Source: Escherichia coli 042
GTDB taxonomy: Bacteria; Pseudomonadota; Gammaproteobacteria; Enterobacterales; Enterobacteriaceae
Reading direction: 5' to 3' (one strand)
NCBI RefSeq assembly: GCF_000027125.1
Contig: NC_017626.1
Length of the DNA: 64,000 nucleotides
In this document: one piece after another, positions 8,293-23,970 of the stretch
Position numbering within the stretch: the first letter of the stretch is position 1
Layout: the number at the start of each line of letters is the position of its first letter
Position numbers and translations under genes: made by a program
The notes under the pieces: model-generated
Told to the model about the DNA's origin: nothing
Databases searched by the model: none
The model's input: only the letters and a program-made list of their open reading frames with translations

Positions 8293-9306
8293 TTACAGGT
8301 ACATTCAGTTTCTTTAGTAAATCGGAAGTAAATAAGATACGTAGCACATATCAATATAGGTTAAACGAGATTAAGTTTTAATTATTTCGATTAGGTTTAA
8401 ATTTATGTTTTTTTCCTGATGAGTGTCAATATGTGAACAGAAAAGGAATTCCATGGTTAAGTCAATATTTACAAAAAATGAAAATATTGCTTTTTTGATA
8501 AGAAGAAAAAGACATTCAGTTTCATAAGGTTATTGGCAATATAACGTTCAATTCTTACTTGCATTTTATATTAGCCAGGAACTTTGCCCTGAGGTGTTAG
8601 GAATAGTCTTAATGTGTTGTGTAATGGACTAGTAAAAAAACAAGTTTAAATGATAAGAAATAGAATATAAAACTATCATGAGTCATAATTAAAGATGATT
8701 TGCCAATCAGTAAGGTGTTTTAATGGATTAACATGCCGCACAAAATGGTTATGGGTGTTCATCCCAATAAGTGATGAAAAATTAAACAGGTGTAAGTACG
8801 TCATCTGTCCGGTAAGCCCCCTAAGAGCCAAATTAAGTGAAGTTAAACGAAGACTGCCAGTTGTCACAGGAACGATGGCCTCTTTGCCAGGGCACTGGAT
8901 TCAGTCATCTGTGCGCGTTACTCTAACTGGCACTCGAACGTCGGCGATGGGGTTACCGGTGGATCAGGCCGTTCCTGTGGCGTAAACGTTTTTATGTCAG
9001 TACCAACAGATTTACCACATTTATCATCTTAACAGTTTGAGTGTAAATGCAGGCTGCGTCGCAAAGGGAGGAAACTGAGTGGCGTGTTCAGTCTAAAAGA
9101 GGGTTGATGCCAGCATACAGGGCGAAGCTGGTCAACAAGTCAACATTAAGATAATGGAATATTCGGAGAGAAACGTCAGGCAGTTGACCTTAAATGAAGA
9201 GGAAGATATATCCCCAGGAAAATTAATGCTGGTGTAATAAATACACCAACATTAATCAGGTCTGATTATTAATCAGACAAATATCGTTAATCCGGCGAAT
9301 TATGAA

Positions 9307-10649: not shown

Positions 10650-11792
10650 TTAATCCATTAACGGAAACCAGCCAGTTCCTTTCGATGCCTGAATTTGATC
10701 CCATAGTTTATCCGGAATGGTTAATTCAGGAACAAGTTGTGGATTAAGGGTTGTTTGAATTTCATGGCTTCTACCTGATTCAGCTAAAGTCACCCATTCT
10801 GGATTTATCACCAGCCCTTTACCGATCGCAACAAGTGGCAGGCCAGTGGAAATTGCTTCTTGAGCCTGAGACGGTGTGCGTATTTTACCTGCGGCGATTA
10901 CCGGCACTCTGCCTGCAATATGATTTAAAATCAATTCAATAGTTCGGGGGCCATTTGGCGACTCAACAGGGTAGCTATCGTTAATACTGACCAGCGAGGT
11001 ATGTATATACGAAATACCGGATGAAATGAGCCGATCAAGGAGTTTATAAGTATCCTCTATCCGCAGCCCCCCTGTTGCAGATTCTTCAGGAGATATTTTG
11101 TAACCGATGGCAAAGGGCTTTGTCGCATATTCATAGACTACATTTTTTACTTCCTGTAATACGGCCAGCGGGAAGCGCATACGTCCTTCGAGATCTCCTC
11201 CCCATCGGTCATTACGCTGGTTAAATAGAGGGGAGAAGAAATTCTGTAGAAGGAATCCGTGCGCACCATGAAGTTCAATGCCATCAAAACCTGCTTTAAT
11301 CGCCCTTTTTGTGACATCTCCGAATGCTCTAATGGTTTCCTGAATTTCGTTTTCAGTCATTTCCCTGCTTTTTACCACTCTCTTCATAAAGTCACCAGAT
11401 TTTACGCTTGATGCGCTGGCACTAATAACATCGTTATTTGGTACAAGCTCCGGGATGGCTTTATTACCGGCGTGGAAAATCTGCAAAATAGCCGGAGCAC
11501 CGCCACTTTTGGCTGCCGCTGCTAACTTTTCAAGGCTGTTAATGAAACGGTCGTCATACGCGGCAAATTCATGAGTAAACCCAATGCCGTTTGGCGTGAC
11601 ATAGGTACATCCTGTTATTACTAAACCAACATTTTGTGAGCGACGTTTATAAAATTCGAGTTCTTGCTCAGAGATGGTTCCATCAGGATTCGCTGACCAG
11701 GTCGTCATAGGAGCCATAACGATACGATTACGTAGCTTTATTTTTTCTGTCAGCATAAAAGGAGAAAACAATGATGGGTGTTTATTTGTCAT
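10650..11792 (-). CDS. NADH:flavin oxidoreductase, Old Yellow Enzyme family (FMN-dependent ene-reductase)
   Basis: 380-aa ORF with OYE hallmarks (N-terminal ...RIVMAPMTTW..., HGAHGFLL motif); GAGG SD 7 nt upstream of the ATG. Confidence 0.8.
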   Translation of the reverse strand: MTNKHPSLFSPFMLTEKIKLRNRIVMAPMTTWSANPDGTISEQELEFYKRRSQNVGLVITGCTYVTPNGIGFTHEFAAYDDRFINSLEKLAAAAKSGGAPAILQIFHAGNKAIPELVPNNDVISASASSVKSGDFMKRVVKSREMTENEIQETIRAFGDVTKRAIKAGFDGIELHGAHGFLLQNFFSPLFNQRNDRWGGDLEGRMRFPLAVLQEVKNVVYEYATKPFAIGYKISPEESATGGLRIEDTYKLLDRLISSGISYIHTSLVSINDSYPVESPNGPRTIELILNHIAGRVPVIAAGKIRTPSQAQEAISTGLPLVAIGKGLVINPEWVTLAESGRSHEIQTTLNPQLVPELTIPDKLWDQIQASKGTGWFPLMD

Positions 11793-12036
11793 AACAATAC
11801 CTCAAATGTTTATCTGATTTTGATGCGTATGTTTTAACTGGTTAGTTGTTGCCAGCTTTGGAACCAAGGTTTATGGCTTTATTTATAATTCCTTCAAAGG
11901 GTTTCTAATAATCTTAATAATTGAGTTGCTGCTTTTTTGTTTCTTTAATGAAATTTCTTTTTGAGTAATTTTATTATTGTTGTGTAGTCAATAAAGGATA
12001 AATGTCAGGGAGATAAGGAATCTCCCTGTAAGATTA

Positions 12037-12957
12037 TTACAAATGTGTTTTATAAAAAGGAATTAATTTATCGAGTGCCTGTTTCACAGGTTCTGGCTTA
12101 TCATACAGGTCGTAATGTGAATAACCTTCAACCACGACCAGCTCTTTATGTTTTGAGGCAGCGCGGCCAATAATTTCGCAGCCGTCACGGTAGGCACCAA
12201 ATGCGCCCACTCTATCGCCCACCACAACCATTATTGGTTGAGTTAACAGGACTTCTGCAAGATGAAATGCATCCCAACCCACGGCAACAGTCTGATGTGA
12301 GAATAGCGAACGATTTACCCCATTAGGTGCACAGCCTCGTGGCGAACGATAATATTCTGTGGCTTCAAAAAGGTCTATTTCTGTTAATCCCGCTTCAAGA
12401 GCTGCATCCGGAGAAGAGGGGAGTAAATCATCTACGCGAAGTTTTGCGCCGTTAGCTTCGTCTGTTCTTTGTTGCGCCATTGCTTCGAGTGCTCCGATAG
12501 GATTAAACGCTGTAAATCCCTCACGCATAAGACGCCCGTAGTTTGCACCCGTGACAGTACCAATAGCTTTAATTCGACGTTCTGTCATTGCGGCATTAAT
12601 GGCATATCCACCTCCACCACAAATACCCAGTACACCAATACGCCCGGCATCAACGTAAGGTAAGGTGGTAAGGTAATCAACGACAATGCTGAAGTCTTTT
12701 ACTCGCATTGTTGGATCTTCCAGATAACGCGGTTCTCCACCGCTGCTTCCCTGAAAACTGGCATCAAAAGCAATGACGATAAAGCCAGCTTTTGCCAGGG
12801 CGGCACCATACACACTACCCGATGTTTGTTCTTTGCAGCTTCCAATTGGATGGGCGCTGATAATGGCAGGATACTTTTTTTCACTATTAAAATCGTCAGG
12901 GAAATAGATATCAGCAGCTATATCCCAGTAAGTATGTTTTATCGAAACAGTTTTCAT
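12037..12957 (-). CDS. Alpha/beta hydrolase, dienelactone-hydrolase-like, with Cys in the nucleophile elbow
   Basis: 306-aa ORF; motif GVLGICGGGG in the place of the usual G-x-S-x-G, suggesting a Cys nucleophile as in dienelactone hydrolases; GGAG SD upstream. Confidence 0.75.
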   Translation of the reverse strand: MKTVSIKHTYWDIAADIYFPDDFNSEKKYPAIISAHPIGSCKEQTSGSVYGAALAKAGFIVIAFDASFQGSSGGEPRYLEDPTMRVKDFSIVVDYLTTLPYVDAGRIGVLGICGGGGYAINAAMTERRIKAIGTVTGANYGRLMREGFTAFNPIGALEAMAQQRTDEANGAKLRVDDLLPSSPDAALEAGLTEIDLFEATEYYRSPRGCAPNGVNRSLFSHQTVAVGWDAFHLAEVLLTQPIMVVVGDRVGAFGAYRDGCEIIGRAASKHKELVVVEGYSHYDLYDKPEPVKQALDKLIPFYKTHL

Positions 12958-13113
12958 TTCAAGCTCCGGGGAATTGCCTAAACAGATTTAAATATCATTT
13001 CTATTATCCGCAACTGGCATTCGTGTTCATGTCGAGAACGGCGTAATAGTATGACTTGTATTGGTTATCATCAATGGTCTAATATCTATCACAGTGTTAA
13101 GTTAAGGTTTACA

Positions 13114-14040
13114 ATGATGAAAATAGAGCCTTCAATTTTGCCTTCTCTTGCCTGGTTTGCGCTGATTGTTCGTGCCGGCAGTTTTTCCAGAGCCGCTTCT
13201 GAAATGGGTATTACGCGGGCCGCATTGTCCCAGAATTTAAAATCTCTTGAGGAACGTCTTAACACCAAGCTGATATACCGTACGACCCGCAATATGTCGC
13301 TTACTGAGGAAGGACAGCGTCTGTATGAAGTGCTGGTGTCGGCTTTGGGGCAAATTGATGATGCTTTGAAAGATGTTGGTGATACCCAACTTGAACCTAC
13401 AGGCCTGTTGAGAATAAATTCCTCCCGTGTTGCAGCACGGATGCTTGTTGAGCCTCATATTGGCGAGTTTCTTACTCGTTACCCCAAAACAAAGATAGAA
13501 CTCATTATGGATGACGGTTTATCTAACATTATTGCGGACGGCTGTGATGTGGGCATACGTCTTGAGCAAGGACTGGATGAGCATATGACTGCCATTCCTG
13601 TTTCTCCGCTTATTAAACTGGTTACTGTGGCATCGCCAGATTATTTAAAAGAGCACGGTATTCCTGAAACGCCTCAGGAACTGAGTAACCATAATTGCCT
13701 TCGGTTGCGGCATAAAAGTAGTGGTGCACTCTCTGCATGGGAGTTTTCTAATGTTGCGGGGGGTAATGAAGAGTTCGAAATAGAGGTTTCAGGTAAGTAT
13801 ATTTCTAATGATGACGAAAGCATGATACGAATGGCGCTGAATGGAACGGGTATCATTCAACATCTGGATTTTGCAATCGCTGAACATATCAATGCGGGCA
13901 AGTTACAGCCGATTCTTGAGGATTGGGCTGTTTCATTTCCTGGATTTTATATTTATGTTTCATCACGGGTGAGAATGCCCTCTAAAGTTCGTGCTTTTAT
14001 TGATTTTATGGTGGAGAAAAGAGTAAAACTCGAAAATTGA
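13114..14040 (+). CDS. LysR-family transcriptional regulator, divergent from the hydrolase/OYE operon
   Basis: ORF 13051..14040; start set at ATG 13114 (MMKIEP...) with AAGG SD; N-terminal LysR HTH (FSRAASEMGITRAALSQNLKSLEERL). Confidence 0.75.
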   Translation: MMKIEPSILPSLAWFALIVRAGSFSRAASEMGITRAALSQNLKSLEERLNTKLIYRTTRNMSLTEEGQRLYEVLVSALGQIDDALKDVGDTQLEPTGLLRINSSRVAARMLVEPHIGEFLTRYPKTKIELIMDDGLSNIIADGCDVGIRLEQGLDEHMTAIPVSPLIKLVTVASPDYLKEHGIPETPQELSNHNCLRLRHKSSGALSAWEFSNVAGGNEEFEIEVSGKYISNDDESMIRMALNGTGIIQHLDFAIAEHINAGKLQPILEDWAVSFPGFYIYVSSRVRMPSKVRAFIDFMVEKRVKLEN

Positions 14041-14195
14041 TGATATGTGTAATTGATGGTTGCTCTGGGCGAATATCGGTAAGAGGAATAACGTAATCAT
14101 TAGGACGCGTTTACATAATAAACTTTCTGATAATTAATACTTATTTTCTATACGGCCATAATATCAATTATCATTATCACCGGTAATGTGGTTAA

Positions 14196-17071
<2,876 letters not shown>

Positions 17072-17621
17072 TTATCGTTCATGAGAAGCATAACGTAAAG
17101 GGAAGAGCTCGATTAGACGGCAGGATTTGTCAGGGGTTATGAACGAAATTCATAAATCTGCTTGAGTGTTGCGATGAGTCGTGCAAGTTCGATATCCCTG
17201 CAATTCACAGTCTGATGAAGAAAAATGAATATCCATAAAAAATATATTGGTTTATCCTGGTGTATATACCTACTTCGACGTATTCCCAATAGCGATTAAT
17301 TAAAGACAGGTCATTATTATTCACTCTTAATAATGAATTATTCACTGCCCGCAGAGTAAGAAATATAACTTAAGTATCTATTTAATAACTTGCACAAAAA
17401 GCTAAATTTTTACCCATAAATAAAAATATAATCCCGCGCCCAACCACCTGATGAGTGGCTACAGACACTGGATATATTAGGTGGCGGTGTACTTTCTTAC
17501 ATAAAGGTATTTCCTTTTCTGCGGAAAAGGAAACCGGGAAATCCCCGGTTTTTCTGACAAGCAGACGCCATTATTTGTGTCTGCCTATGTTCGTTAATTC
17601 GTTCATCAGGAAATTATCTCA

Positions 17622-20600
17622 ATGTCACGTTATAAAACAGGTCATAAACAACCACGATTTCGTTATTCAGTTCTGGCCCGCTGCGTGGCGTGGGCAAATA
17701 TCTCTGTTCAGGTTCTTTTCCCACTCGCTGTCACCTTTACCCCAGTAATGGCAGCACGCGCGCAGCATGCGGTTCAGCCACGTTTGAGCATGGAAAATAC
17801 CACAGTAGCTGCTGATAATAATGTGGAGAAAAATGTCGCGTCGTTTGCCGCAAATGCCGGGACATTTTTAAGCAGTCAGCCAGATAGCGATGCGACACGT
17901 AACTTTATTACCGGAATGGCCACAGCTAAAGCTAACCAGGAAATACAGGAGTGGCTCGGGAAATATGGTACTGCGCGCGTCAAACTGAATGTCGATAAAG
18001 AATTCTCGCTGAAGGATTCTTCGCTGGAAATGCTTTATCCGATTTATGATACGCCGACAAATATGTTGTTCACTCAGGGAGCAATACATCGTACCGACGA
18101 TCGTACTCAGTCAAATATTGGTTTTGGCTGGCGTCATTTTTCAGGAAATGACTGGATGGCGGGGGTGAACACCTTTATCGACCATGATTTATCCCGTAGT
18201 CATACCCGCATTGGTGTTGGTGCGGAATACTGGCGTGATTATTTGAAATTGAGCGCCAATGGTTATATCCGGGCTTCTGGCTGGAAAAAATCGCCGGATG
18301 TTGAGGATTATCAGGAACGCCCGGCGAATGGCTGGGATATTCGTGCTGAGGGCTATTTACCTGCCTGGCCGCAGCTTGGCGCAAGCCTGATGTATGAACA
18401 GTATTATGGCGATGAAGTCGGGCTGTTTGGTAAAGATAAACGCCAGAAAGATCCACATGCGATTACCGCTGAAGTGAATTACACGCCAGTGCCTCTTCTG
18501 ACCCTGAGTGCCGGGCATAAGCAGGGCAAGAGTGGTGAGAATGACACTCGCTTTGGCCTGGAAGTTAATTATCGGATTGGCGAACCTCTGGAAAAACAAC
18601 TCGATACAGACAGCATTCGCGAGCGTCGAATGCTGGCAGGCAGCCGCTATGACCTGGTTGAGCGTAATAACAATATCGTTCTTGAGTATCGCAAATCTGA
18701 AGTGATCCGTATTGCTCTGCCTGAGCGGATTGAAGGTAAGGGCGGTCAGACACTTTCCCTGGGACTTGTGGTCAGCAAAGCAACTCACGGACTGAAAAAT
18801 GTGCAGTGGGAAGCGCCGTCATTACTGGCTGAAGGTGGCAAAATTACCGGTCAGGGTAGTCAGTGGCAAGTAACGCTCCCGGCTTATCGTCCAGGCAAAG
18901 ACAATTATTATGCGGTTTCAGCGATTGCCTACGATAACAAAGGCAATGCCTCGAAACGTGTGCAGACAGAAGTGGTTATTAGCGGAGCTGGTATGAGCGC
19001 CGATCGTACGGCGTTAACGCTTGACGGTCAGAGCCGTATTCAAATGCTTGCTAACGGTAATGAGCAAAAGCCGCTGGTGCTGTCTCTGCGCGACGCCGAG
19101 GGCCAGCCAGTCACGGGCATGAAAGATCAGATCAAGACTGAACTAACCTTCAAACCGGCTGGAAATATTGTGACTCGTACCCTGAAGGCCACTAAATCAC
19201 AGGCAAAGCCAACACTGGGTGAGTTCACCGAAACTGAAGCAGGGGTGTATCAGTCTGTCTTTACTACCGGCACGCAGTCAGGTGAGGCAACGATTACTGT
19301 TAGCGTTGATGGCATGAGCAAAACCGTCACTGCAGAACTGCGGGCCACGATGATGGATGTGGCAAACTCCACCCTGAGCGCTAACGAGCCATCAGGTGAC
19401 GTGGTTGCTGATGGTCAGCAAGCCTACACGCTGACACTGACAGCGGTGGACTCCGAGGGTAATCCGGTGACGGGAGAAGCCAGCCGCCTGCGACTTGTTC
19501 CGCAAGACACTAATGGTGTAACCGTTGGTGCCATTTCGGAAATAAAACCAGGGGTTTACAGCGCCACGGTTTCTTCGACCCGTGCCGGAAACGTTGTTGT
19601 GCGTGCCTTCAGCGAGCAGTATCAGCTGGGCACATTACAACAAACGCTGAAGTTTGTTGCCGGGCCGCTTGATGCAGCACATTCGTCCATCACCCTGAAT
19701 CCGGATAAACCGGTGGTCGGCGGTACAGTTACGGCAATCTGGACGGCAAAAGATGCCAATGACAACCCTGTAACAGGCCTCAATCCGGATGCACCGTCAT
19801 TATCGGGCGCAGCAGCTGCTGGTTCTACGGCATCTGGCTGGACAAATAATGGTGATGGGACGTGGACTGCGCAGATTACTCTCGGCTCTACGGCGGGTGA
19901 ATTAGAAGTTATGCCGAAGCTAAATGGACAGGATGCGGCAGCAAATGCGGCAAAAGTAACCGTGGTGGCTGATGCATTATCTTCAAACCAGTCGAAAGTC
20001 TCTGTCGCAGAAGATCACGTAAAAGCCGGTGAAAGCACAACCGTAACGCTTATTGCAAAAGATGCGCATGGCAACGCTATCAGTGGTCTTTCGTTGTCGG
20101 CAAGTTTGACGGGGACCGCCTCTGAAGGGGCGACCATTTCCAGTTGGACCGAAAAAGGTGACGGTTCCTATGTTGCTACGTTGACCACAGGCGGAAAGAC
20201 GGGCGAGCTTCGTGTCATGCCTCTCTTCAACGGCCAGCCAGCAGCCACCGAAGCCGCGCAGTTGACGGTCATCGCCGGAGAGATGTCATCAGCGAACTCT
20301 ACGCTTGTTGCGGACAATAAGACTCCAACGGTTAAAACGACGACGGAACTCACCTTCACCGTGAAGGATGCGTACGGGAACCCGGTCACCGGGCTGAAGC
20401 CAGATGCACCAGTGTTTAGCGGTGCCGCCAGCACGGGATCAGCGCGACCTTCAGCAGGAAGCTGGACAGAGCAAAGTAATGGGGTCTACGTGGCGACCTT
20501 AACGCTGGGATCGGCTGCAGGTCAGTTGTCTGTGATGCCGCGAGTGAACGGCCAAAATGCCGTTGCTCAGCCACTGGTGCTGAATGTTGCAGGCGACGCT

Positions 20601-21875
20601 TCCCGGGCAGTGATCAGTGATATGGCGGTGAAGGTGAATAACCAACTGGCAAATGGACAGTCTGCTAACCAGGTAACCCTGACCGTCGTGGACAGCTATG
20701 GTAACCCGTTGCAGGGGCAAGAAGTTACGCTGACTTTACCGCAGGGTGTGACTAGCAAGACGGGGAATACAGTAACAACCAATGCGGCAGGTAAGGCGGA
20801 TATTGAGTTGATATCAACCGTTGCAGGGGAACTTGAAATCGCGGCCGCGGTGAAAAACTCTCAGAAGACGGTCACGGTGAAATTCAACGCGGATGCCAGC
20901 ACCGGTCAGGCAAACCTGCAGGTAGACACCGCCGTTCAAAAAGTGGCAAACGGCAAAGATGCCTTTACGCTGACGGCGACCGTTGAGGATAAAAACGGTA
21001 ACCCTGTTCCAGGCACTCTGGTGACCTTTAATCTGCCCCGGGGTGTCAAGCCGCTTACTGGCGATAATGTCTGGGTGAAAGCCAACGATGAGGGGAAAGC
21101 AGAGTTGCAGGTGGTTTCCGTGACTGCCGGAACCTATGAGATCACGGCGTCGGCAGGAAATGACCAGCCTTCAGATGCGCAGACTATAACGTTTGTAGCC
21201 GATAAGGCTACCGCAACCGTCTCCGGTATTGAGGTGATTGGCAACTATGCACTGGCGGACGGCAAAGCCAAACAGACGTATAAAGTTACGGTGACTGATG
21301 CCAATAACAACCTGTTGAAAGATAGCGACGTGACGCTGACTGCCAGCCCGGCTTCGTTAAACCTGGAACCGAATGGCACTGCGACAACGAATGAGCAAGG
21401 GCAGGCTATTTTCACCGCTACCACTACTGTTGCGGCGACATACACACTCAAGGCGCAAGTGAGTCAGACCAACGGTCAGGTATCAACGAAAACTGCCGAA
21501 TCTAAATTCGTCGCGGATGATAAAAACGCGGAGCTCACCGCATCATCTGATGTGCAATCGCTGGTGGCGGATGGGAAATCGACTGCGAAGCTGGAGGTTA
21601 CCCTGTTCTCGGCAAATAACCCTGTTGGGGGGAATGTGTGGGTCGACATTGAGGCTCCGGAAGGAGTGACGGAGAAGGATTATCAATTCCTGCCGTCGAA
21701 AAATGACCATTTCGTGAGCGGAAAAATCACGCGTACATTTAGTACCAGCAAGCCTGGTGTCTATACGTTCACATTTAACGCCCTGACCTATGGCGGGTAC
21801 GAAATGAAGCCAGTGACGGTGACCATAACCGCGGTGGATGCCGATACGGCAAAGGGCGAGGAGGCGATGAAGTAA
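17622..21875 (+). CDS. fdeC: Intimin/invasin-family inverse autotransporter adhesin with tandem bacterial Ig-like domains (FdeC / EaeH), full length
   Basis: 1417-aa ORF; N-terminal signal/anchor and intimin-like beta-barrel region followed by repeated ~100-aa Ig-like units (recurring ...TLT.VD..GNPVTG... motifs). Confidence 0.9.
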   Translation: MSRYKTGHKQPRFRYSVLARCVAWANISVQVLFPLAVTFTPVMAARAQHAVQPRLSMENTTVAADNNVEKNVASFAANAGTFLSSQPDSDATRNFITGMATAKANQEIQEWLGKYGTARVKLNVDKEFSLKDSSLEMLYPIYDTPTNMLFTQGAIHRTDDRTQSNIGFGWRHFSGNDWMAGVNTFIDHDLSRSHTRIGVGAEYWRDYLKLSANGYIRASGWKKSPDVEDYQERPANGWDIRAEGYLPAWPQLGASLMYEQYYGDEVGLFGKDKRQKDPHAITAEVNYTPVPLLTLSAGHKQGKSGENDTRFGLEVNYRIGEPLEKQLDTDSIRERRMLAGSRYDLVERNNNIVLEYRKSEVIRIALPERIEGKGGQTLSLGLVVSKATHGLKNVQWEAPSLLAEGGKITGQGSQWQVTLPAYRPGKDNYYAVSAIAYDNKGNASKRVQTEVVISGAGMSADRTALTLDGQSRIQMLANGNEQKPLVLSLRDAEGQPVTGMKDQIKTELTFKPAGNIVTRTLKATKSQAKPTLGEFTETEAGVYQSVFTTGTQSGEATITVSVDGMSKTVTAELRATMMDVANSTLSANEPSGDVVADGQQAYTLTLTAVDSEGNPVTGEASRLRLVPQDTNGVTVGAISEIKPGVYSATVSSTRAGNVVVRAFSEQYQLGTLQQTLKFVAGPLDAAHSSITLNPDKPVVGGTVTAIWTAKDANDNPVTGLNPDAPSLSGAAAAGSTASGWTNNGDGTWTAQITLGSTAGELEVMPKLNGQDAAANAAKVTVVADALSSNQSKVSVAEDHVKAGESTTVTLIAKDAHGNAISGLSLSASLTGTASEGATISSWTEKGDGSYVATLTTGGKTGELRVMPLFNGQPAATEAAQLTVIAGEMSSANSTLVADNKTPTVKTTTELTFTVKDAYGNPVTGLKPDAPVFSGAASTGSARPSAGSWTEQSNGVYVATLTLGSAAGQLSVMPRVNGQNAVAQPLVLNVAGDASRAVISDMAVKVNNQLANGQSANQVTLTVVDSYGNPLQGQEVTLTLPQGVTSKTGNTVTTNAAGKADIELISTVAGELEIAAAVKNSQKTVTVKFNADASTGQANLQVDTAVQKVANGKDAFTLTATVEDKNGNPVPGTLVTFNLPRGVKPLTGDNVWVKANDEGKAELQVVSVTAGTYEITASAGNDQPSDAQTITFVADKATATVSGIEVIGNYALADGKAKQTYKVTVTDANNNLLKDSDVTLTASPASLNLEPNGTATTNEQGQAIFTATTTVAATYTLKAQVSQTNGQVSTKTAESKFVADDKNAELTASSDVQSLVADGKSTAKLEVTLFSANNPVGGNVWVDIEAPEGVTEKDYQFLPSKNDHFVSGKITRTFSTSKPGVYTFTFNALTYGGYEMKPVTVTITAVDADTAKGEEAMK

Positions 21876-21910
21876 TATTAAGAATATGAAAGTAACATTC
21901 TAATAAACAA

Positions 21911-21945
21911 TAATGGCGTTGACATCTTCAACGCCATTATTTATT
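21911..21945. terminator. Bidirectional rho-independent terminator between fdeC and ykgA
   Basis: 8-bp stem GGCGTTGA / TCAACGCC (21915-21922, 21928-21935) with a 5-nt loop, flanked by A/T-rich runs on both sides. Confidence 0.6.
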
Positions 21946-21995
21946 GAATTGCCTGACAGTAGTCTCGTTATAAATTCATGTAAACATCGCTACAG

Positions 21996-22853
21996 CTAAA
22001 CCGGGCGAACGGGGATAAAAATTTCGCAAACAATGTTATTGCTATCAATTTCGACGAAGTTTTCATTGTAATAAAATCGCTCAATATCACTGCCGTTCAC
22101 TCTGGCTAACCCCCTGGCAGGTAATTCCATCAGATAGAGGTTTCGCGCCCATTCAGGGTAGTGCTCCCACTCACCTTCATAGCGGAAAGAGGCATACAGT
22201 CCTCGGTTAATTGTCCACTCTTTCGACATCTCTGAATCGGTTTGTTTGCATACCGTACCGGCAAAAGTTTCAACTGTGAGCAAATCGACCGATTTTGTTG
22301 ACGGTTCGAATGTGGAGACGAAATAGATATCCGTCTTAAAACTCTTCATACATCTGGCTAAATGATGACGTCGCAGTTTGACTTCTTCATCCGGTGATTT
22401 ATTCGACACTTCAATGTCATATTTAAATGAATCGCCAAAAATAGGTGTCTCAGGAAAGTTGACTAATCTACACTCCGTCTTTTGCTGTTGACGTATTAAA
22501 AAAGAAGGGAAGATATTTGCGAGATCCCAATAATCACGGTGGCGGTATTCACGGGGAGAGCAGCCGAATAACTTTTTAAATTCGCGGCTGAATGACTGCT
22601 GTGAGTCAAAATGCAAAGAGAGTGCAATATCAAGCATAGATTTCGCGGTGAGTCGGACAAGAATGGCGGCACGACAAAGCCTTCGTTTGCGAATGTATTC
22701 TCCTAAAGGCACATGCATGAAATTTCGGAACAGAAGCTGGATGTTGCGCCTGCTGTAGCCAGATTTCTGTGCGATATCTTCGATTGAAATAGGGTGCTCA
22801 AGATTGCACTCAATCCACTCCAGGAGCTGCTGTAGAATCTTCTGCCTGATCAT
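21996..22853 (-). CDS. ykgA: AraC/XylS-family regulator with C-terminal GyrI-like effector-binding domain
   Basis: ORF 21996..22886 begins at GTG without an SD; start set at ATG 22853 (MIRQKILQQLLEWIE...) preceded by GGAG. N-terminal AraC HTH pair, C-terminal GyrI-like region. Confidence 0.75.
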   Translation of the reverse strand: MIRQKILQQLLEWIECNLEHPISIEDIAQKSGYSRRNIQLLFRNFMHVPLGEYIRKRRLCRAAILVRLTAKSMLDIALSLHFDSQQSFSREFKKLFGCSPREYRHRDYWDLANIFPSFLIRQQQKTECRLVNFPETPIFGDSFKYDIEVSNKSPDEEVKLRRHHLARCMKSFKTDIYFVSTFEPSTKSVDLLTVETFAGTVCKQTDSEMSKEWTINRGLYASFRYEGEWEHYPEWARNLYLMELPARGLARVNGSDIERFYYNENFVEIDSNNIVCEIFIPVRPV

Positions 22854-23085
22854 CACATTCTCCGTTAATTCTTTGTCATATCGCACATTTTCGTTATGTC
22901 CTGGGCCCTAAGTGTATCAAAAATAGCAAGTCCCAAGGCAAAAGCACTGATAGCGTCTGCTTCATTGCCCCAAAAATAGAGAGGTTTCAGTCCTACATTA
23001 TTAATGAATTTTTTGCATAAGTGATATCAAAATCCACATACTAATTTGAGGTTACGTTTTAACGTAGACTCATTGTTCATACCTA

Positions 23086-23970
23086 ATGGAGGGACTGACA
23101 GTGGAATTTTCCGTATTAAGTAACAATCTGAAAATGCCGATGATGGGATTTGGTGTTTTTCAGGTTACCGATAAAGACGTGTGCAAACAGTCAGTGTTGA
23201 ATGCTATCCGCACGGGTTATCGACTCATCGACACTGCAGCGGTATACGGTAATGAAGATGCCGTCGGTGAAGCCGTTCGTGAAGCCATATCTGAAGGTTT
23301 ATGTACCCGAGAAGAGTTATTTATAACGTCTAAATTGTGGGTGCAGGATATGTTGAATCAGGATATTGCAGCAGCAGGTATTGAAGCATCATTAAAAAAA
23401 TCGGGACTGGAATACTTCGATCTCTTTTTATTGCACCAGGCCATGCGCGATTATTTCAGTGCGTGGCGTGCACTCGAAGATGCCTATGAAGAGGGCAAAT
23501 TAAAAGCGATTGGGGTTTCCAATTTCTACCCTCATGTTCTGGCGAACTTTTGTGAAACGGTAAGAGTTAAACCGATGGTCAACCAGGTCGAGTTGCATCC
23601 CTATTTTGCCCAACCAGAGGCGCTGGCAACCATGAAGTATTATAACGTGCAGCCTGAAGCATGGGCTCCGTTAGGTGGTGGACGACATAAACCCTTTGAA
23701 AATAATCTGCTTCAGAGTATTGCAGATGCCCATCAAAAATCGATTTCTCAGGTCATTCTGCGTTGGAATATTCAACGGGGAGTGGTCGTTATTCCGAAAT
23801 CGACACATCAACAGCGTATCGAAGAAAATTTTGCTATTTGGGATTTCTCACTGACAGAGAAAGAAATGGCGCAAATTAGTTCGCTTGATTTGGGTTATGT
23901 TGGGGAATCGGTAAAACATTTTAATCCTGAGTTTGTTCGTGGTTGTCTTGCTGTAAAAATACATGATTGA
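23086..23970 (+). CDS. Aldo-keto reductase (DkgA/YvgN-like), apparently intact
   Basis: 294-aa ORF (…NNLKMPMMGFGVFQV…IDTAAVYGNE…); alternative GTG start at 23101 preceded by GGAGGG. Divergent from ykgA. Confidence 0.75.
   Translation: MEGLTVEFSVLSNNLKMPMMGFGVFQVTDKDVCKQSVLNAIRTGYRLIDTAAVYGNEDAVGEAVREAISEGLCTREELFITSKLWVQDMLNQDIAAAGIEASLKKSGLEYFDLFLLHQAMRDYFSAWRALEDAYEEGKLKAIGVSNFYPHVLANFCETVRVKPMVNQVELHPYFAQPEALATMKYYNVQPEAWAPLGGGRHKPFENNLLQSIADAHQKSISQVILRWNIQRGVVVIPKSTHQQRIEENFAIWDFSLTEKEMAQISSLDLGYVGESVKHFNPEFVRGCLAVKIHD

Follow-up and report, generated by a model that had tools for sequence, protein, structure and literature searches.

The 64,000-nucleotide stretch of Escherichia coli 042 DNA analyzed here (contig NC_017626.1; hereafter the window, whose numbering we use throughout) carries what is very probably an intact copy of fdeC (eaeH), a gene for an intimin-like adhesin, and we find that the 234 bp directly upstream of its start codon (17388-17621) are the most constrained sequence in the locus. 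It is possible, though we would not call it probable, that this block is an undescribed regulatory module, confined to Escherichia and under purifying selection, in which an activator-dependent promoter lacking a −35 element and carrying a marbox-like box, read by a protein of the Mar/Sox/Rob family (YkgA is one possibility), precedes a structured leader with an attenuator-like terminator. The conservation of the block is the sole point that is new with respect to the accessible literature, and its function is what we infer. The intact fdeC in this window is already known ground, as the gene, its structure, its distribution and its control by H-NS and temperature have all been published. If the module is real, it would explain how a near-universal E. 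coli adhesin stays silent in culture and is turned on in the host. FdeC is a vaccine antigen and colonization factor whose inducing signal is unclear, and the 234-bp block is a place to look for it.

A strongly conserved block upstream of fdeC

The fdeC coding sequence occupies 17622-21875 (+) as one open reading frame (ORF) of 1417 codons and a stop, with an ATG start and no internal stops in the ORF list and its translation, so that the uninterrupted frame claimed in an earlier note on this DNA stands. RefSeq places fdeC ("inverse autotransporter adhesin FdeC", WP_000092571.1) at the same coordinates on the same ORF in NZ_CP028764.1, the genome of E. coli A10, isolated from wood-wren faeces in Mexico, and window positions 16900-23100 are 100% identical to that record. 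The 6.2-kb region is at least 99% identical to the window allele in 12 of the 5165 matching records, making this an uncommon allele. Annotation of A10 and six other genomes gives fdeC the same neighbors, a reductase/hydrolase/regulator cluster on one side and ykgA with rclCBA on the other, a layout that agrees with the text description of Fig. 1 in PMC3324786. Together, the ORF call, the translation, the domain content of the 1417-residue protein and the RefSeq match make it very likely that the ORF is an intact fdeC, the prototypical E. coli type Ve adhesin, at its usual chromosomal site.

The non-coding leader of fdeC (17057-17621) spans 565 bp at 37.5% GC, compared with 49.5% for the whole window. 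The earlier note had described it as a long A/T-rich leader, and its length and base composition are as described; it is not, however, a uniform A/T-rich spacer, since it falls into a distal A/T-rich part (17057-17387, 35.6% GC) that varies between strains and a proximal 234 bp that form a strongly conserved block holding the putative promoter and 5′ untranslated region (UTR). An alignment of eight E. coli leaders displays the same division, the distal part being variable and the proximal part nearly invariant. Measured against A10, the proximal block diverges by 0.5-2.2% within E. coli and by 2-5% in two sister species, whereas fourfold-degenerate sites in the first 870 nt of fdeC diverge by 8-15% in the same genomes; the block evolves 5-15 times slower than synonymous sites within E. 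coli. Its last 132 nt diverge by 0.8-4.5% outside the genome E69.

We compared three equal segments of 234 nt at a threshold of at least 99% identity to A10 across about 5035 genomes. The proximal block (17388-17621) reaches this threshold in 1811 genomes, a segment of the distal leader (17100-17333) in 157, and the first 234 coding nucleotides of fdeC (17622-17855) in 16. Most genomes (4742 of about 5040) carry the distal segment at 90-95% identity to A10.

A scan of species-representative genomes found true fdeC orthologues (at least 91% identity in the N-terminal 460 residues) only in Escherichia, namely in Escherichia sp. E1V33, E. whittamii and E69, and the next match, from Citrobacter, lies at 57%. 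In E69 the upstream DNA is unrelated up to window position 17388, and homology runs from 17388 to the ATG. This genome (CP089930.1, labelled E. coli) is a divergent species representative whose FdeC N-terminal region is 91% identical; it carries an unrelated 476-aa ORF on the − strand upstream of fdeC, and homology resumes exactly at the marbox-like box described below.

A coding role of the leader was rejected: a 9-codon ORF at 17451 loses its ATG in E69, and 1-nt indels in O157 and E69 interrupt a 97-aa ORF that starts at 17455. A separate 24-codon ORF in the variable distal leader (MNIHKKYIGLSWCIYLLRRIPNSD, 17225-17299, +) has a purine-rich stretch before its ATG and is unannotated in the records examined.

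Candidate promoter, predicted leader structure and their possible control

Published work on other strains describes fdeC as tightly controlled. FdeC is absent from standard cultures and is produced once the bacteria touch host cells (Nesta 2012, as reported in PMC4943183), in EHEC (enterohaemorrhagic E. coli) H-NS represses fdeC, which is expressed from 39 °C upward (Easton 2014, as cited in PMC11143625 and PMC6714894), and the gene of avian pathogenic E. coli (APEC) is induced at 42 °C (PMC11143625). In K-12, eaeH belongs to a transcriptionally silent protein-occupancy domain, and even a lac promoter placed there is shut down (PMC4191405). This literature supports the view, put forward in the earlier note, that the adhesin is silenced and conditionally expressed, and by analogy the same may hold for A10. 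The distal leader is the probable target of silencing by H-NS or other nucleoid proteins, which would occupy the A/T-rich upstream DNA and keep the gene normally silent. A putative H-NS nucleation motif inside the marbox-like box, matching at 7/10 positions by eye, was too weak and was not used.

The proximal block opens with a marbox-like 20-mer in forward orientation, ACTTGCACAAAAAGCTAAAT(T) (17388-17407, +), which is invariant in 11 sequences including those of E. whittamii, Escherichia sp. E1V33 and E69. A 19-bp spacer (17408-17426, +) follows, fixed in length and variable in sequence (about 9 of its first 13 columns vary among the 11 sequences, with 0 indels), and leads to a perfect TATAAT (17427-17432, +) that we read as the predicted −10 element, inside the invariant AAAAATATAATCCCG. 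The 20-mer has one mismatch (13/14) to AYNGCACNNWNNRYYAAAYN, the older 20-bp marbox consensus. Its core, GCACAAAAAGCTAAA (17392-17406), agrees with the marbox GCAnnWWnTGnnAAA derived from chromatin immunoprecipitation (ChIP) at 9/10 positions (PMC12052159) and with the consensus gcactaattgctaaa at 12/15 (PMC5684230), and it resembles the verified MarA sites of ybaO (gcacaaaatgacaaa) and leuO (gcacaattagctaat), both taken from PMC5684230.

Transcription would most likely begin about 7 nt after the TATAAT, at a predicted transcription start site (TSS) near 17438-17440. No −35 match lies 16-18 bp from the TATAAT, which would leave the promoter with no usable −35 element, and a sigma-70 promoter scan made no + strand call in the leader, the TATAAT included; the absence of a −35 element is as expected for an activator-dependent promoter. 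No fdeC TSS is reported in the literature searched, Easton 2014, a possible source for the promoter, lying outside that search. With these predicted positions, the marbox-like box would sit where a class II activator binds. [quoted passage not shown] The fdeC box differs from these in its distance of 231 bp to the start codon and in the unusually long structured leader in between, and its TSS is a predicted one.

Such a transcript would start with a conserved leader of about 182 nt, rich in hairpins, one of which forms a terminator-like stem. Folding and conservation define this predicted 5′ UTR (17439-17621, +) and its four hairpins: the minimum free energy (MFE) of 17440-17640 is −62.2 kcal/mol, compared with −43.4 ± 4.0 for shuffled sequences (z = −4.69). 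Hairpin H1 (17444-17484, +) is followed by H2 (17511-17532, +; −10.6 kcal/mol), by H3 (17533-17549, +; −9.8 to −13.0 kcal/mol) and by H4 (17561-17584, +; −11.4 kcal/mol), and a Shine-Dalgarno sequence (SD) AGGAAA lies at 17608-17613 (+). H3 consists of CCGGG-AAAUC-CCCGG followed by UUUUUCUG (U5) and is terminator-like, about 70 nt before the ATG. Between species, H3 varies in its loop (C, U or A) or through changes that produce G-U wobbles, and H4 in E69 has one compensatory change from G:C to A:U.

One account of the conserved block, which we hold only tentatively, is that MarA, SoxS, Rob or YkgA binds the 20-mer (17388-17407) as a marbox-type activator site of class II and from there recruits RNA polymerase to the −35-less TATAAT promoter. 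All 11 sequences have the box unchanged, homology with E69 starts exactly there, and the spacer behind it keeps its length as its sequence varies. It lies in forward orientation with its core centered about −40 from the predicted TSS, within the class II range of −36 to −55 and near the micF site at about −41, and it comes close to all three motif forms to which we compared it, as well as to the ybaO and leuO sites. The adjoining ykgA, moreover, encodes a Rob-like protein without known target. A genome-wide marbox screen retained only sites lying within 200 bp of a start codon (PMC12052159), and its supplements list a ykgA site and no eaeH site; the 231-bp distance, together with the pseudogene context in K-12, would explain why the box went unreported there. 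Several observations weigh against this account and against the module as a whole. About 1.45 matches this good are expected by chance in a 64-kb window, so that the sequence by itself is no rarer than chance would give. MarA ChIP followed by sequencing (ChIP-seq) in enterotoxigenic E. coli (ETEC) H10407, which carries eaeH, has no eaeH peak (PMC5684230), in a study whose authors warn that occluded sites and sites preferred by SoxS or Rob are missed. Helix 3 of YkgA reads R-R-N-I-Q-L where that of Rob reads K-W-H-L-Q-R, so that its half-site preference may differ, although YkgA retains the helix-6 SQQ.F.R motif. On the RNA side, covariation in the leader is not significant (9 distinct sequences with one compensatory pair, matched by 58/500 shuffles). 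The start site from which the position of the box is counted is itself a prediction, and the literature searched gave no link between eaeH and mar, sox or rob.

The conservation may reflect control at the RNA level in the 5′ UTR, with H3 as a leader terminator or attenuator, or with the U-tract and bases upstream masking the SD and AUG, or both, until relieved by a signal such as a small RNA (sRNA), a protein or temperature; this we regard as possible and subject to considerable doubt. The leader folds far better than its shuffles, H3 is stable and runs directly into UUUUUCUG, its changes stay in the loop or preserve pairing through wobbles and H4 adds its compensatory change, the last 132 nt are nearly unchanged outside E69, and the 1-nt indels in O157 and E69 speak against a coding function. 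Beyond the lack of significant covariation, such control is opposed by SD pairing that does not exceed that of shuffled UTRs (p = 0.13), by the absence of any Rfam match at E ≤1 on either strand of 16500-23200, by the lack of an eaeH entry in the K-12 Term-seq supplements searched, and by a covariance model of the hairpin region that found nothing upstream of 75 distant inverse autotransporter (IAT) genes; it also fails if the TSS lies downstream of H3. A narrower version, a fourU-type RNA thermometer in which the pairing of UUUUCUGA (17550-17557) with the SD region UCAGGAAA (17606-17613) would come apart from 39 °C upward, is unlikely. The MFE structure does contain an 8-bp helix with four U opposite a sequence containing AGGA, and reported FdeC expression is confined to 39-42 °C (PMC11143625); the predicted unpaired fraction of the SD, however, rises only gradually, being 0.27 at 25 °C and 0.41 at 45 °C, its sequestration is not significant relative to shuffles (p = 0.13, as above), all paired bases are invariant and so offer no covariation evidence, and temperature-sensitive H-NS silencing already explains the phenotype. 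We consider it quite unlikely that the TATAAT promoter instead makes an independent sRNA of about 115 nt (about 17439-17555) ending at H3, with a separate promoter for fdeC. A perfect −10, a 5′ hairpin and a terminator-like hairpin with U-tract, all conserved, would suit such an RNA; none of the records examined (about 5000 matches) has an sRNA annotated at this position, the Rfam search returned none, 17556-17621 holds no candidate fdeC promoter, and the 65 nt after H3 are equally invariant, which fits one continuous leader. Finally, fdeC could be a dead gene, its ORF intact only through recent history and never expressed, or without function, in this lineage. Its silence in standard culture in the strains studied and its repeated loss or disruption by insertion sequences (IS) in some lineages are in keeping with that idea, which is nevertheless extremely improbable given a 4.25-kb ORF that is open in 83% of genomes, a β-domain conserved at 96-100% in protein while fourfold-degenerate sites diverge by 8-15%, an upstream control region under even stronger constraint, and function demonstrated in extraintestinal pathogenic E. 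coli (ExPEC), EHEC and APEC.

Were the marbox reading correct, adhesin expression would respond to signals met in the host, for example bile, fatty acids or oxidative stress, and its confirmation would provide the first target for YkgA or add an adhesin to the mar/sox/rob regulon. The gene for this candidate regulator, ykgA (21996-22853, −), is intact in the window and encodes a Rob-type regulator of the AraC family with two helix-turn-helix motifs and a GyrI-like ligand domain. YkgA aligns over its full length to the Rob structures 7VWY and 1D5Y (E 1e-38) and matches the Pfam families HTH_18, HTH_AraC and GyrI-like, and it scores below the cutoff of the NCBIfam RobA model. It is a recognized paralogue of MarA, SoxS and Rob without identified function or targets (PMC2064960). 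A marbox over the ykgA core promoter, TGTATCAAAAATAGC (22913-22927; K-12 coordinate 316412), is listed in a supplement of PMC12052159, and YkgA may itself be under mar/sox/rob control or autoregulated. In some strains with an intact fdeC, ykgA is a pseudogene, as in GF60, where it has an internal stop (5397-6254 of L003); the K-12 gene is truncated (8677-9330 of L002). If YkgA regulates fdeC, strains of the GF60 type would be natural mutants.

The FdeC protein and its alleles

The earlier description, an N-terminal intimin/invasin-type region followed by an array of immunoglobulin (Ig)-like repeats, is borne out by domain annotation. The sequence begins with a stretch (MSRYK...VMAARAQ) that reads like a long intimin-type signal sequence. 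The IAT β-barrel domain covers residues 76-350 (17847-18671, +) with Pfam PF11924 (IAT_beta) at E 2.5e-110 over profile positions 3-279 of 279, and in a search of solved structures residues 113-357 match invasin (4E1T, E 1e-83) and intimin (4E1S, E 5e-72). Next comes a first Ig-like domain (residues 358-457; 18693-18992, +), called intimin D00-like from the match of residues 358-474 to PDB 6TQD (intimin D00, E 8e-13). Residues 458-1301 (18993-21524, +) hold R1-R8, eight Ig-like repeats in tandem, each about 100 aa long; an iterative hidden Markov model (HMM) made from the protein itself recovers all eight at full length (E 1e-31 to 1e-37). The divergent C-terminal domain (residues 1302-1417; 21525-21872, +) has a weak match to this self-HMM (E 8e-4 at 1302-1411). 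In Pfam terms, the passenger contains nine stretches of Invasin_D3 and six of Big_1. The D00-like domain, the eight repeats and the C-terminal domain bring the Ig-like total to ten, which is also the count given for FdeC by Heinz et al. 2016 (PMC4943183). The best solved-structure match is the crystallized FdeC fragment 4E9L (E 2e-249, residues 595-1008). The protein thus has both an N-terminal IAT β-barrel and an Ig-superfamily (Big) passenger, the features that define type Ve.

Compared with six other alleles, including those of Nissle (B2) and O157, the protein has 91.7-96.8% amino acid identity, and lengths are 1415-1418 aa; the literature places the orthologue threshold for FdeC above 91% identity (PMC3324786). 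The assignment to FdeC/EaeH made from sequence alone is confirmed by these identities and the 4E9L match, and the proposed checks by domain annotation and by alignment with other alleles and K-12 gave the expected family and a gene orthologous and syntenic with known fdeC. With FdeC/EaeH of ExPEC IHE3034 (ECOK1_0290), ETEC H10407 and EHEC EDL933 it has in common the gene name and a locus between the reductase/LysR block and ykgA-rclCBA, as well as the IAT β-domain and ten Ig-like domains; at 1417 aa the window protein has no difference in kind from them.

Intimin (Eae) and Yersinia invasin share the type Ve layout of an N-terminal β-barrel followed by Big domains and have four or five Ig domains, where FdeC has ten. 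Identity with intimin was ruled out by the NCBIfam model NF033627 (389 bits against a cutoff of 1400), and the NCBIfam models for intimin, IatC, Ilp and SinH all scored far under their cutoffs. Pfam finds in FdeC no LysM domain and no C-type lectin-like C-terminal domain of the kind that binds Tir or integrin. The low intimin-family scores and the absence of LysM and lectin domains indicate that the protein is FdeC rather than intimin or invasin proper. The neighbors of fdeC are metabolic and regulatory genes, with no LEE (locus of enterocyte effacement) context.

From literature on the family, the signal sequence would direct FdeC to the periplasm, where the β-domain (residues 76-350) would be inserted into the outer membrane with the help of the β-barrel assembly machinery (BAM) and the translocation and assembly module (TAM), and the C-terminal passenger of ten Ig domains would be threaded out through it. 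CFT073 FdeC is TAM-dependent (PMC4943183). The passenger would form an extended rod with affinity for collagen and epithelial cells, and would promote aggregation and biofilm formation. Adhesion to collagen and epithelial cells and aggregation are known only for the alleles of IHE3034, EDL933 and IMT5155 (PMC3324786, PMC11143625, PMC4943183), and the window allele, being intact and orthologous to FdeC of other strains, would presumably act as an adhesin as well.

The earlier note had proposed aligning the Ig-like repeats to look for recombination between them, and this possibility was ruled out. The ten Ig-like domains have pairwise identities of 13-46% in amino acids, the DNA period of the array is degenerate at about 309 bp, and the longest exact nucleotide match is 11 nt, which does not suffice for repeats to recombine by homology; in keeping with this, the seven fdeC alleles differ in length by at most 3 codons. 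Exchange between alleles, on the other hand, has left its mark. The β-domain is 96-100% identical between alleles, and distal domains fall to 70-80% relative to the B and B2 alleles, the C-terminal domain (74-95%) being the most variable part together with R6-R8. Compared with GF60, the window allele has 6 nucleotide differences in nt 1-1050 and 153 thereafter (p = 7e-13), and its closest allele is that of GF60 for the β-domain and that of fEC.1 for the distal domains. The window allele is a mosaic from exchange with other alleles, a pattern of ordinary allelic exchange in a surface protein that fits the FdeC subtype variation of Heinz 2016 (PMC4943183) and the variant analysis in APEC (PMC11143625).

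FdeC-like IAT N-terminal domains at 40-55% identity occur in records of Pseudomonas guariconensis, Bartonella choladocola and Ralstonia sp., and also in assemblies labelled "Collinsella", "Bacillota" and "Chryseobacterium". Some of these records are probably contamination, since the match statistics of L072 and L073 are identical although the two carry different genus names.

Prevalence, the K-12 deletion and the flanking DNA

Among complete E. coli genomes, 5159/5426 match the 6.2-kb region and 4524/5426 (83%) hold at least 80% of it in one place. In published surveys, fdeC occurred at about 99% in ExPEC and at 83-100% in other groups (Nesta 2012, PMC3324786), while a set of 126 genomes had it at 67% and the ECOR collection at 83% (Goh 2019, PMC6714894). 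Since an intact fdeC is the norm, it is no pathogen marker and carries no information on pathogenicity. It is the common state of the species, and K-12 is a derived state that arose through a 3.75-kb IS3-associated deletion.

As the earlier note had stated, eaeH of K-12 is truncated and an IS3 copy stands between it and ykgA. By blastn breakpoints and the K-12 annotation, K-12 retains window positions 17071-18497 and 22249 onwards, with IS3 in place of 18498-22248. The deletion takes away all of fdeC from codon 293 on, as well as the terminator and the 3′ part of ykgA, leaving codons 1-292, and the locus is annotated as a β-domain pseudogene, IS3 and a truncated ykgA. The K-12 pseudogene has the leader and first 876 nt in common with the window, at 95.6% identity over 17071-18497; it differs in that ykgA is also truncated and in that a six-gene block upstream of 17071 is absent.

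In the window, fdeC and the convergent ykgA are separated by a 120-bp spacer that holds neither a transposase ORF nor IS-type inverted repeats, as had been claimed. Within it, inverted repeats and folding define a terminator hairpin common to the two genes (21909-21941), with arms at 21909-21922 and 21928-21941 that form a perfect 14-bp stem around a 5-nt loop (−18.7 kcal/mol). The earlier note had called this a clean bidirectional terminator. The stem is as perfect as that implies, and bidirectionality is plausible, with the terminator scan making a call on the − strand only; on the + strand a core stem GGCGTTGA/TCAACGCC is followed by ATTATTTATT. The B and B2 alleles preserve the stem, with wobble pairs and altered loop bases, even though the fdeC end and the rest of the spacer are very different and include an 18-nt insertion, which supports a functional terminator common to fdeC and ykgA.

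The six-gene block (about 10650-17071; 2751-9157 of L001) sits between ykgR and fdeC in A10, GF60 and B2 strains and encodes a NADH-dependent flavin oxidoreductase, an alpha/beta hydrolase, two LysR regulators and two aldo/keto reductases. K-12, B and fEC.1 are without it and retain a 90-nt gene fragment, the junction lying at about 17071, just outside the fdeC leader. Further upstream, ykgL (about 9047-9272; 1148-1373 of L001) is frameshifted according to the A10 annotation. About ten matches to the fdeC leader and gene start fall on records typed as plasmids, such as NZ_AP027498.1 (10.6 kb), which probably reflects mis-binning of small chromosomal contigs and not genuine copies on plasmids.

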